The position numbers and the translations under genes were made by a program. A DNA stretch of 63,616 nt, counting the filler, from Perkinsus chesapeaki ATCC PRA-425 (lineage: Eukaryota > Protista > Perkinsozoa): assembly GCA_013115145.1 (NCBI GenBank). It is 8 parts of 8 records of this genome, joined end to end, with 100 filler letters (N's around TTAATTAATTAA, not from the genome) between each part and the next. Parts side by side here need not be neighbours in the genome. Positions count along the whole stretch, not along the records: positions 2,682 to 22,659 come from JAAPAO010000628.1; positions 22,760 to 41,916 come from JAAPAO010000646.1; positions 42,017 to 51,919 come from JAAPAO010000923.1; 5 more parts are not named here. The stretch is one strand, 5' to 3'. Positions within the stretch are counted from its first letter, which is position 1; each line of letters starts with the position of its first letter. The notes beneath the pieces were generated by a model. That model was not told where the DNA came from. It did no database searches and worked only from the letters and a program-made list of their open reading frames with translations. Shown here in pieces: positions 11,442 through 50,561 of this stretch.

Positions 11442-14400
11442 TCATTCTCTTGGGATCGTGAGGGGTTCCACGGCGCCAATCAGACTTCCCCTAATAACAG
11501 TATCGTCACGGAAAACACTCCGCATTAAAACATACGCTCGAGCCCGCTGCAGAGGAGCCCCCGCCGCCGCCGGCCATCGCCATCTTCTCGCTTTGCCTGT
11601 ATGCTTTCCACTCACTCTTGGTGTTCTCATCGGGGACAAGCTCGGGTGTACTCCCTCCGCAGTTGAAGCAGCAACACAACCTTCCAAACCAATACTGAAT
11701 CAAGAACCTGAGGACGACATAAAGATATTCTTCATAGTGCGCACGGGTATCTTACAAGAGCGATCCGATTGATTTAACACCGTTGAAGAAGACAACCGTG
11801 CCAAGCACGAAATACATAAAGCTGTTCGCCGAGATCGCCAGCACAGTCGCCGGGCCGGAAGTTCCCTCAGTAGAGCTCGTTACGGCCTACTCATAAAAAC
11901 GGTAAATAAAAATCGCTTCGCTCCGCCTACATAAATAAGAGCCAAATTGGAGATAGCCCAACAAAGCACAAGATAAGTCCTGAACTCGTTACGCTGCGCC
12001 TGAATATCCTTCTGCGTGACGTCGTTCGAATCCAGGCCTTTTGTGCCTGACAGAAAAAATTAATTTCTTATTCAAGTTGTCGATAAGGTTACCCCAGGAC
12101 AGGTCGTGGGTGTTGCAGAATGCGAAGGTTTGGAAGATGTTAATATACGTCGGTGACATAAACGTATATTGTAGGTAGTTGGCCAGTACGTGTACACCCT
12201 GAAGAATAACAAAGACATCTGAAAACTAAGATTAAATTTAAAGTGCGCAAGTTGAGAGACCAGATGCTTCCGCTGGATAATCGTCAGCCTTTGAAACGGT
12301 AGTCAGTGTAATCGTACGATAGAGCCGGTTGCCCAGGACACCGACGGTAACGAGTAAGGAATAGATGCACTAGGACGCACATGTGTGTCGGTGAGGGTAG
12401 AAGTACTTCCAAAGAGGAAGTTTGAGGGGTAAACCTGGTAAGGCCAGTCTAGGATACCCACGAGAAAACTATTTTTCCTGAGATGATTGTCAAGGAGATT
12501 CTATTCCACTTCCACGCACGTCTAGATACATCCAAGCGCTCGCCTACATACATTTCAGAAAGACCCTGTCGGAAAACCAGAGGGCAGCAGATAATCAGAT
12601 TAAGCGAATACCAACTAAGACTTCCGCACTGCTTCGATCCAGGGGTCATAGAGGAACACCAAATCTTCCGCGAAGGAATGCGCTCTACTTCTCATTTTGC
12701 TCTGGGATCATAATTTCTAAACTGATTCATATTTCACCTCAGCATTAGGAACAGTGTTACACACACGAAGAAAACATTCCTGCGAGGCTAGATTAATCCC
12801 TGGTTCGATCCCTGGTGGCTGCAACTTACTTCACCATGTAGAATAGCGACCACAACATAGCTGAGCACAGCAGCAAGGCCAATCGCCATCAGCACTATCT
12901 GGGACGATGTTACAACGTTATAAACAGCTACGGCGAAAGTAGCTATCATAAATATACCAAATACGAAGGATATCAACTTATACCTGAAAAACGACTAAGT
13001 CAAGTTTCAATGGTACGGCTTACAGTGCCCGCAAAGATCTTCGGGGTGAATCTGGCTGGGTACCCATAGCCAGAAGAAAAGTAGTAAACATGAGAATGAG
13101 GTATCTGGAATAACGCACTATAAAGATTCCTTCTCCTTATCAGCCAATAACGCACTGTAAAGATTCCTTCTCCTTATCGACCAATAACGCACTATAAAGA
13201 TTCCTTCTCCTTATCGGTCATTAACGCACTATAAAGATTCCTTCTCCTTTTCGACCAATAACGCACTATAAAGATTCTTTGGAAATAACGCACTATAAAG
13301 ATTCCTTGGAAATAACGCACTATAAAGATTCCTTGGAAATAACGCACTATAAAGATTCCTTCTCCTTTTCGACCAATAACGCACCATAAAGATTCCTTGG
13401 AAATAACGCACTACAAAGATTCCTTGGAAATAACGTACTATAAAGATTCCTTCTCCTTATCGGCCAATAACGTACTATAAAGATTCCTTCTCCTTATCGG
13501 CCAATACCGCACTATAAAGATTCCCTCTCCTTATCGACCAATAACGCACTATAAAGATTCCTTCTCCTATCTTACATGAACTGTATCACAATATACACTG
13601 CATCTGCTCCAGGAAATAAAAGATTCCCTCCATCAATCAGAAATGAATTCCACAATATAATGAAAGTAAGGTAAAAGATACCCACCAGGAACCACGACAA
13701 CAAAGTGTTCAACGCCGAGAACCTGACAAAAATACATGCCAAGTTTCACTTCGTAACAGAGTGCCCTCGAAGGGATAATAAAAGTACGACTCTAGCGATC
13801 TGAGCATCAAACAGTCTAGGTAGGGAGCGCAGTCAGTTATTCATAGGGGAAATATTTCATATCAGATTCCCACATCACCAAACATACAGCAATAATATCA
13901 ATATAAACAATAAAGTTATTAATCCCAATGTATCAGCCTTCCATCAGCTCTCGAGCGTCAGAAGCAGTCCCAAAGCAAAAGAAGGCATTAGATGCCTTTC
14001 ATCGATTCCCTCCTCTATGACCCCCCCAAACCTACAACAACTCGTTCATCAAGATAAGCTTTCTAAACCAAGAGTGCTTCGTAGTGAAGATCCTAAACTG
14101 CAGCAGACCCTGCCAAAGCGCAAAGATTTGTGCGAAGAACGATCCGTTCATCCACCGCCTTCTTTGCTTTATCAACGCGGCACAGTTGTCCGGAACCTGC
14201 GTGGAGGAAATGCAAGTGGGAGCAAGATTTCAAGTTACGTCGGTCACTGCAACGGAATTCTTAACATATTTTAGAGTGTTGGCGGCCGTTCGACTGCAGA
14301 CCAACTCGAGTGCGAGAATCCGATCTTCCGCAAGATACCTGATGACACAAATCGATCACTTGATCGATTTGTCGCTAGTACATATTGCCATAAAATGGAT

Positions 14401-48500: not shown

Positions 48501-50561
48501 TATGTAATATTTTTCCGAAAACTATTTTCTTGGTGAAAAATTGTCTTCAAGTTCGTCTTTAGGGTAAGTGAAAGGTCGTCGCTTCAAATCCCGAGGAGGC
48601 GTCGTACATCCCCGAAAAAAATCAGGATATCTTTTTTGTTTTTCCCGTAGGACAAAGGACCTTGCTTTGGAAAGTATTTACGCCACGGAAGAGCAATTTC
48701 ATAAAAATTGTCTTTCAGTCGATTTTTGTCGGAAGGAAATCATGCCGAAGAAAACCTGTTTTCCGGAAAATTGCAGAAGTTGGGTGAAAGAAAACTTTGT
48801 TTTTTGTCAGATACATTCTCGAAGGGGCATGGGATCCTCGCGATGTTTTAACTCGGAGTGAATTCATTGTTATATTTGTTATTACCATAGCCTATATAGC
48901 AGAAGGGATGATTGTATCTATTGTATTGGGGTGTATATTATGTTGCATGTAATAAGATATTCTTCATAGTGCGCAATTTTAAAGATATTCTTCATAGTGC
49001 GCAATTTTAAAGATATTCTTCATAGTGCGCAATTTTAAAGATATTCTTCATAGTGCGCAATTTTAAAGATATTCTTCATAGTGNNNNNNNNNNNNNNNNN
49101 NNNNNNNNNNNNNNNNNNNNNNNNNNNNNNNNNNNNNNNNNNNNNNNNNNNNNNNNNNNNNNNNNNNNNNNNNNNNNNNNGTGCGCAATTTTAAAGATAT
49201 ATGAAGTAAATTAGAGTTAATTCAAGGCATATCTTTATCATCCAGATGGCGCTCTTTTTTCCCTAAAGCTCCCTAAAACCCGATTTTCCTGATTTTTTCC
49301 ATAAATTTTCCTTCTTTTTTGTCAGGTATTTTACCGTAAGATATGCAGCATCTCCTCTGGTGATTCTCCCAACCGACGCTCGAAGCACTCAGGCTCGCAC
49401 TCGACAGAATTCAGCAGCTATCTCTAAATATTACAAAGATCATACCATCATTGTTGTGAGGTCGGTAAAATATTTTTTTCCGGAAAATTTAAGATTTTTT
49501 TCAGGACGATTTGTTCACAGTTATTTTTCGGGACGTCTGCATCGATCAAGAAAGCTGTGAAGGATATTTCCGGTGGAAACACCACGGCTTTGGTGTTCGA
49601 CCTCGGTTCGGTCGAATTCTCGGATGTGAGCGCTCTTGTAGCGATAGGGAAGATTCCAGGAGGAATCGATCAAGTGGGCGAGCGAAAGATAGAGTTGATA
49701 ATCTGCAATGTTAACGAAGAGTTGAAGTCTCAGTTGAAGAGATCGAGAGACGCTCATTTCATTCCCAAGGACACGCGGATATTCTCGGAGCTGGATTTGG
49801 GGTTGCAGTGGGCGGAAGATACGTGTCTGCTGGCGGATGGATTTGCAGTGAATCCGTCGATTAAGGGAAGTATTTCTGAGAAAAAATTGGTGGGAGAAAT
49901 TTTCGGAGATGTAAAATTGGCGAAATTGTGGCGGAAAATATTTATAAAAATTAAAGTGAGTTGTGGTGAAACGGTTTACCAAGAAGGAACGCTTGCGAAA
50001 GGATTGTATATTGTGGCGCGCGGTCAATTAAGTTTGTATTCTGGAGCTGCGAGGATCCATACGGCGATTCGAGGGGACAAAGGACCGGATATCGGAATAG
50101 CTAGACGAGTCGGACCGTATGGTGTGCCGAACAGTCCGGCAGCATTTCGTGGCGCGCGACGGACGCAAGTCGTTCAAGCTGGAGATGTACTATGTGAGAG
50201 AGCGGCTTATGGTGCATGCGCGCATACGAGGAGTTTAGTGGCTGATGAAGATGGGACGGAATTGCTGTTATTACCCCGAGATCGCTTGTTAAGATTAGAG
50301 CATGAAGAACCGTCACTCGCCATGAAGTTGCATAGAGCTTTGGCGATGAGAGCCTCGGGGATTTCGTGTGAGAAAGCAGGAATTTCCGGGCGCGCAAGAA
50401 TTGAGAGTGTGTGCTCTGAAGGGGTGAATGAGGATGATGATTTGATAAGTCGACTGCACGGTTATGGTGGCGGGAATTCACTTTTGTTGGTTCCGAGCCG
50501 GCGTGAGAATCTTTTAGCTCAACCGTGCACTGATGGACGAATGCCACCAGTCTCGGTGTGA
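45520..50561 (+). CDS. SulP-family transporter with STAS and cNMP-binding domains (yeast Vsb1/YGR125W-like architecture); start uncertain
   Basis: TM exons (GILSGFLV, EATAGGELNMQSEL...NL..G..GG), STAS VFDLGSVEFSDVSAL...ELDLGLQWAED, cNMP VYQEG...LYIVARG. Confidence 0.85.
48953..49200. repeat. 28-bp intronic minisatellite AAAGATATTCTTCATAGTGCGCAATTTT (N-gap 49084-49180)
   Basis: Perfect tandem units beginning immediately after the GTAAT donor at 48949. Confidence 0.95.

Follow-up and report, generated by a model that had tools for sequence, protein, structure and literature searches.

Human hypervariable minisatellites carry a common core in otherwise different repeat units, the same core also occurs dispersed, and the PRDM9 hotspot motif is found in hypermutable minisatellites. 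Regulatory variable-number tandem repeats (VNTRs) in introns and homotypic clusters of protein-binding sites are likewise known. The available parts of two papers treat duplication between flanking repeats of 5-10 nucleotides (nt) as an established origin of minisatellites (PMC6947457; PMC13167724), and the first also describes minisatellite families grown from dispersed repeats, with cases from the short interspersed nuclear element (SINE) B1, MaLR and Alu (PMC6947457). For Introners, the accessible text of a survey takes end-to-end similarity as the criterion (PMC9860276), and introner elements of Amoebophrya are described, in the portion at hand, as having terminal inverted and direct repeats (PMC7789003). 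Here we describe a 13-letter core, CGCRCYRYRAAGA, that is common to three intronic minisatellites of Perkinsus chesapeaki ATCC PRA-425, in a stretch of 63,616 nt (the window) made of eight contigs joined with N spacers (separators include 22660-22759 and 41917-42016). Perkinsus is a single-celled parasite of shellfish and the sister group of dinoflagellates. We found no description of shared-core intronic minisatellites, or of such motifs in Perkinsus, in literature coverage that left out most subscription journals.

The core occurs in three of the window's six non-coding tandem arrays, all three in introns mapped with proteins. They lie in genes for chitin synthase (14 cores at 13114-13558), TMEM18 (6 clear cores at 23803-23997) and a sulfate transporter, in which every 28-nt unit carries the core; the shared core that the initial annotation had assigned to the arrays near 13112 and 23859 is thus borne out. 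Single cores stand at 11729, 26365 and 39750. With head-to-tail units and periods of 27/37, 29/30 and 28 nt, the three arrays are minisatellites by the usual definition (units of about 10-60 nt).

All enrichment statistics were computed from the window alone. The six arrays, non-coding and with periods of 25-59, were drawn from 29 tandem-repeat rows after exclusion of overlapping rows of one array, two repeats inside open reading frames (ORFs; at 3453 and 3577), a 129-nt duplication at 1563 along with the 15-mer inside it, and repeats that are short or of low complexity (e.g., 1272, 16310, 29187, 36081, 45715 and 52278). Because the core consensus of the initial annotation had been chosen after the data were seen, we added a motif-blind test of the arrays. 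The best three of the six agree at 11 of 14 letters, which was reached in 5 of 3000 draws of same-length random fragments and in 25 of 5000 draws from module-rich DNA, many of these by drawing one place twice (p 0.002-0.005). Outside the arrays, the earlier consensus has four matches at no more than one mismatch against 0.48 expected, a number reached in none of 60 simulations; the fourth of them, at 46933, is coding. A matrix built from array units only gave four outside sites of at least 14 bits against 0.7 expected, one of which shares a 13-mer with a training unit and another of which is coding. For a random 33-nt fragment, the chance of holding the core is about 0.004.

Spliced alignment with protein P0003 gave 20 introns in the chitin-synthase gene, whose homologues are from P. 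olseni and P. marinus; the introns at 11708-11755 and 13105-13575 are both GT-AG. The longer of the two starts with 15 nt, continues with thirteen 37-/27-nt units and closes with a 25-nt last unit that ends in the acceptor. When the thirteen units are taken out, 40 nt remain, and the gene's 7 short introns measure 40-49 nt. Since the array intron reduces to an intron of typical length, amplification in place is likely. AGATA is found at the donor and again spanning the joint between acceptor and exon, GA(T/A)A recurs at the joints of the 37-nt units, and the 27-nt unit ends with a near copy of the acceptor. We also aligned contigs from 4 of 11 runs (X1, X2 and the RNA runs X6 and X8) to window positions 2700-13100, accepting likeness down to 85%. 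The contigs of X1 and X2, both possibly source runs of the window, end 38 letters beyond 13100, exactly where the array starts, so the repeat is present in both. X6 and X8 contributed small shares, and none of their RNA contigs extended over the introns with arrays or the 48-nt intron.

The TMEM18 array was placed by the homologue P0007, found with HMMER, which aligns unbroken across both exons flanking 23779-24410 and thereby identifies the interval between them as an intron of this gene. Its units begin with TATCT or a variant and show a higher-order period of 59 nt. For the sulfate transporter, exact chaining of P0006, a deposited prediction from Perkinsus chesapeaki, yielded nine introns including 48949-49325, and the exon at 49503-50558 is 100% identical to it. 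The 28-nt array in this intron consists of 4.6 copies at 48954-49083, a gap of 97 N at 49084-49180 that hides the full copy number, and a remnant to about 49202. The window has two inner assembly gaps, this one and 34227-34322, each inside a tandem array. The three arrays differ in unit length, flanks, contig and orientation, which, together with the reduction of the chitin-synthase array to a 40-nt intron, upholds the proposal of the initial annotation that a singly occurring motif expanded in place and independently.

The single cores connect these arrays to other loci. The 24-mer at 11720-11743, in the 48-nt last intron of chitin synthase, is repeated exactly at 48980, 49008 and 49036 (92% at 48952 and cut by N at 49064), so that it is, as previously claimed, the unit core of the 28-nt array on another contig. 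Beyond the core, the singles match the 28-nt unit in different registers (24 of 24 at 11720, 21 of 23 near 39750 and 22 of 28 in 26349-26391), and the match at 39750 extends on the other side of the core than the 24-mer does. Matches this long exceed what a short binding site would fix and suggest descent; the 24-nt identity and the 21/23 match agree better with recent copying than with selection acting on a short site. The earlier placement of the singles in short introns stood only in part. Cores are present at both 26365 and 39750, and the latter is apparently intergenic, after a stop at 39655 and ahead of a candidate ATG at 39858 (ORF reading); the intron at 26349-26391 is likely from its splice signals and frame, and the unspliced frame also ends plausibly.

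Run data for the 48-nt intron indicate that it is not multi-copy as a whole, because the depth of X1 over 11375-11721 is single-copy (110.5). X2 holds a copy of approximately 86% identity that covers 11708-11755 apart from a gap of 1 nt at 11710. In one contig of X1, the 20 letters that end at 11741 continue into a different module, at single-copy depth, which hints that another copy exists beyond the window.

Relative to the transcript, the core runs in the sense direction at 11708, 23794 and 26349 and in antisense at 13105 and 48949; with both orientations represented, it is a DNA-level feature. It is carried by 3 of 29 mapped introns and by 1 of the 12 shorter than 60 nt. All seven of its variable positions differ by transitions, keeping purine or pyrimidine, a pattern compatible with both mutational decay and a degenerate site. 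A splicing signal at the RNA level was rejected because the core appears in both orientations and outside introns. We also rejected a shared hairpin: the singles fold no better than shuffles (z 0.02, -0.30 and -0.79), the chitin-synthase units have z +1.4, and only the TMEM18 dimer and the 28-nt dimer fold (z about -2.7). Neither Rfam nor ARAGORN assigns a known RNA family to the core or to any of the arrays, so an origin from tRNA, snRNA or rRNA is not supported. Searches of metagenome contigs for a 22-mer and of viral contigs for its degenerate form returned nothing, and a search of metagenome contigs for chitin synthase P0003 gave 88 pattern matches, 0 of them confirmed.

Two of the other arrays lie outside the family. 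The initial annotation had tied the arrays at 19833 and 34099 to it through CATACCG; the match between their units, TCATACCG, is at chance level (p 0.33 and 0.28). We rejected the link, with p 0.06-0.99 to the core and about 0.3 to each other. The 19833 array had also been taken as intronic, a placement that was not confirmed: by ORF reading it seems intergenic, situated upstream of where chitin synthase starts and downstream of the apparent stop of the preceding gene. Comparison of the 25122-25247 array with the 28-nt unit gave p about 0.02, uncorrected for 55 comparisons.

Table 1. Arrays, core-bearing introns and single cores in the window
Feature	Position	Strand	Basis or remark
Last intron of chitin synthase, 48 nt; one core, sense	11708..11755	-	Spliced alignment with P0003; in-frame stop if unspliced
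24-mer, 24 of the 28 nt of the sulfate-transporter array unit	11720..11743	+	No exact match between non-paralogous loci in the window is longer
Chitin-synthase intron, 471 nt, entirely array; 14 cores, 37-/27-nt units, antisense	13105..13575	-	
Last intron of TMEM18, 632 nt; holds the second array	23779..24410	+	Pfam PF14770; P0007
Array of seven 29-32-nt units; 6 clear cores, sense	23794..24010	+	
Intron of SulP/STAS/cNMP sulfate-transporter gene; holds the third array	48949..49325	+	Exact exon chaining of P0006; Pfam
28-nt array, units 100% identical; core antisense, AAGATAT at each end	48954..49202	+	
Likely intron, 43 nt; one core at 26365-26377	26349..26391	+	GT..CTAAC.CAG, open spliced frame
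Single core, apparently intergenic; 21/23 identical to 28-nt unit	39750..39762	+	
45-nt array without core	19833..20030	.	Upstream of chitin-synthase start (about 19590)
25-nt array, a weak relative at best, with AAGATATT in common	25122..25247	+	
39-nt array without core	34099..34360	.	

The core is one of many modules of 14-24 nt common to non-paralogous loci. After each array was reduced to a single unit and paralogues were masked, such loci share 27 exact matches of at least 16 nt against 1.0 expected, and five pairs of at least 20 nt against none in 20 simulations, the 24-mer being the longest. The words that recur (GGTTCGA, GTATCTT, TGCACGCATG, CGCCACGAAA, TTGCATTTCCTC and AATCGATCA..TGATCGATT) stand on both strands over 11000-14400 and 22760-51919, in introns, gaps and apparently exons (31016, 50013 and 50144), and are nearly absent from the contigs past 52020; GTATCTT occurs on both strands of the same genes. 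An inverted repeat of fixed spacing and variable middle, ATCTT-N14-AAGAT, lies at 29856, 30143, 30560, 33602 and 48281 (5 against 0.21 expected, with 45 spacings times 4 pairs scanned) and looks like the site of a dimeric protein.

The genes that host the arrays have other features of their own. An approximately 86% identical second copy of an RRM gene and the 3′ end of chitin synthase, corresponding to 9569-11941, was found in X2 (record 13) and X8 (record 23) and was not seen in X1; it is a diverged haplotype or a paralogue. Within the 44-nt chitin-synthase intron at 11887-11930 (minus strand), the part overlapping 11895-11935 is high-copy genome-wide (13 contigs in X1 and 30 in X2), and its GGCGGAGCGAAGCG is found again at 1461, 30198 and 30624 and, reversed and near an acceptor, at 40838. 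This intron is the window's best Introner-like candidate, although a published survey, in the part available, scored Perkinsus as lacking Introners (PMC9860276). The 43-nt intron at 14339-14381 (minus strand) is mostly a perfect 11-bp hairpin (z -4.3), with related palindromes at 29330, 39829 and 47444. The short introns at 11755 and 46975, in unrelated genes, are identical in their first 11 letters, which reversed give the enriched word GTATCTT. A 15-nt exact match joins 49194, directly after the 28-nt array, with 15046 in a chitin-synthase intron, so that another module abuts the array. At 48395-48481, ARAGORN makes a tRNA-like call that straddles the junction of an exon and an intron in the sulfate-transporter gene; introns often contain B-box-like words. 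Elsewhere in the window, 52460-55854 and 1964-2581 are long intronless ORFs with a transposon-derived look, the second with DUF6729. At 4469 and 7810, loose ends in run X6 mark trans-splice sites of two genes and resemble what we take to be a spliced leader.

The reading we prefer, to which we give an about even chance of being right, is that these are microhomology-seeded minisatellites grown from a copied, dispersed module. Modules would have spread by short-patch copying. A core-bearing segment would then have been duplicated by slippage between short direct repeats and expanded, separately in each intron. The abundant AGAT(A)/(T)ATCT beside the core could supply the microhomology arms, and this context may make the core module more prone to duplication than other modules. 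Introns would tolerate the arrays because the splice sites remain outside them, and selection on copy number is not needed. The microhomologies read by eye at the array ends (AAGATAT in the 28-nt array, AGATA in chitin synthase with the right arm reaching into the exon, and a degenerate ATCT in TMEM18) fit duplication between short flanking repeats. Several observations weigh against this account. The arms were read post hoc and, as they belong to the context in which the core usually occurs, are not independent evidence. A strong bias to so rare a module, which has only about three singles yet sits in three of six arrays, may need more than microhomology; the commoner modules GGTTCGA (31), TGCACGCATG (9), AATCGATCA (9) and CGCCACGAAA (7) are in none of the six. 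Units of the chitin-synthase and TMEM18 arrays are like the others in the core alone, which would also fit convergence on a binding site, and the spaced inverted repeat hints that proteins may bind some of these words. The single-copy ancestral state was seen in no orthologous intron.

A bound site, whether selected or merely destabilizing, is possible. The initial annotation had proposed a selected one, and the two transcript orientations, the unrelated flanks of the three arrays, the transition-only degeneracy, the excess of matrix sites outside the arrays and the copy that lies, with other modules around it, in what appears to be a promoter gap would all agree with it. In that case a nuclear DNA-binding protein would recognize the core, and the arrays would be homotypic clusters that tune their host genes through copy number. 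We consider this unlikely: the 24-nt identity goes beyond what a usual binding site fixes, the three hosts have no obvious common pathway, and few of the mapped introns, short ones included, carry the core. Equally unlikely, in our estimate, is a PRDM9-like process in which the 13-letter site of a sequence-specific Perkinsus factor drives its own amplification and turns 40-nt introns into site arrays; the core would be one word of a dense, orientation-free code in introns, intergenic gaps and even exons. Somewhat less probable again is that a protein-bound core is locally unstable, through breakage, recombination or fork pausing, and that the arrays are a by-product with unselected copy number. 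Such instability could account for the bias of arrays to a rare module while commoner ones are absent, and for its freedom of orientation, and the lack of a shared hairpin argues against a purely structural cause; against this reading, six arrays are a small sample.

Slightly below that we rank the possibility that arrays and singles alike are remnants of a single older repeat, either a decayed miniature inverted-repeat transposable element (MITE) or a minisatellite family with pieces pasted into introns, the singles deriving from arrays. It would explain why the singles align to the 28-nt unit in different circular registers, and the intron at 11887-11930, with up to 30 contigs, demonstrates that short dispersed repeats exist. 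A check of the six loci for a single MITE origin, within the window, revealed neither common ends nor terminal inverted repeats nor target-site duplications; likeness between the loci ends after 13-28 nt, X1 has single-copy depth over 11375-11721, and the accessible part of the Introner survey lists P. chesapeaki, P. olseni and P. marinus as lacking Introners (PMC9860276). Chance similarity could draw on the post hoc choice of the consensus and on a plain 14-mer that is not enriched at 3 mismatches (7 against 5.4). It is contradicted by the exact 24-nt match and by the motif-blind array test and is largely refuted, and we regard it as very improbable.

Among known systems, human shared-core minisatellites resemble these arrays in the common core and the dispersed copies, and regulatory intronic VNTRs in the intronic array of a candidate protein-binding word; for Perkinsus, both likenesses are drawn from sequence alone. 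Microhomology-mediated tandem duplication, the Haber-Louis origin, is alike in units of 10-60 nt, direct repeats at the ends and non-coding location, as far as the available text of both sources describes it (PMC13167724; PMC6947457), but in Perkinsus the same short core has been amplified at unrelated loci, and one of the arrays occupies an entire micro-intron. Families from dispersed repeats, in the excerpted account (PMC6947457), likewise have independent arrays at several loci from one dispersed sequence; in contrast to those derived from SINEs or long terminal repeat elements, the source here is a 13-24-nt module without a recognizable element body. Introners, as partly accessible sources present them (PMC9860276; PMC7789003), also make introns of unrelated genes resemble one another in an alveolate, whereas the Perkinsus similarity is internal (13-28 nt), in either orientation, found outside introns as well, and not end to end. 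The terminal inverted and direct repeats given for Amoebophrya in the portion at hand (PMC7789003) are absent from the Perkinsus core loci.

The birth of a minisatellite is rarely visible, and here a whole 40-nt intron appears to have been caught after an approximately 14-fold amplification. The arrays could serve as strain markers if polymorphic. If the bias reflects microhomology only, it would be ordinary repeat mutation. To our knowledge, the cis-regulatory code of the Perkinsus lineage is little described. Three of the six arrays trace to one rare module, and if this bias holds genome-wide, the module would be a protist example of a sequence that determines repeat formation, as well as a candidate DNA-binding site.

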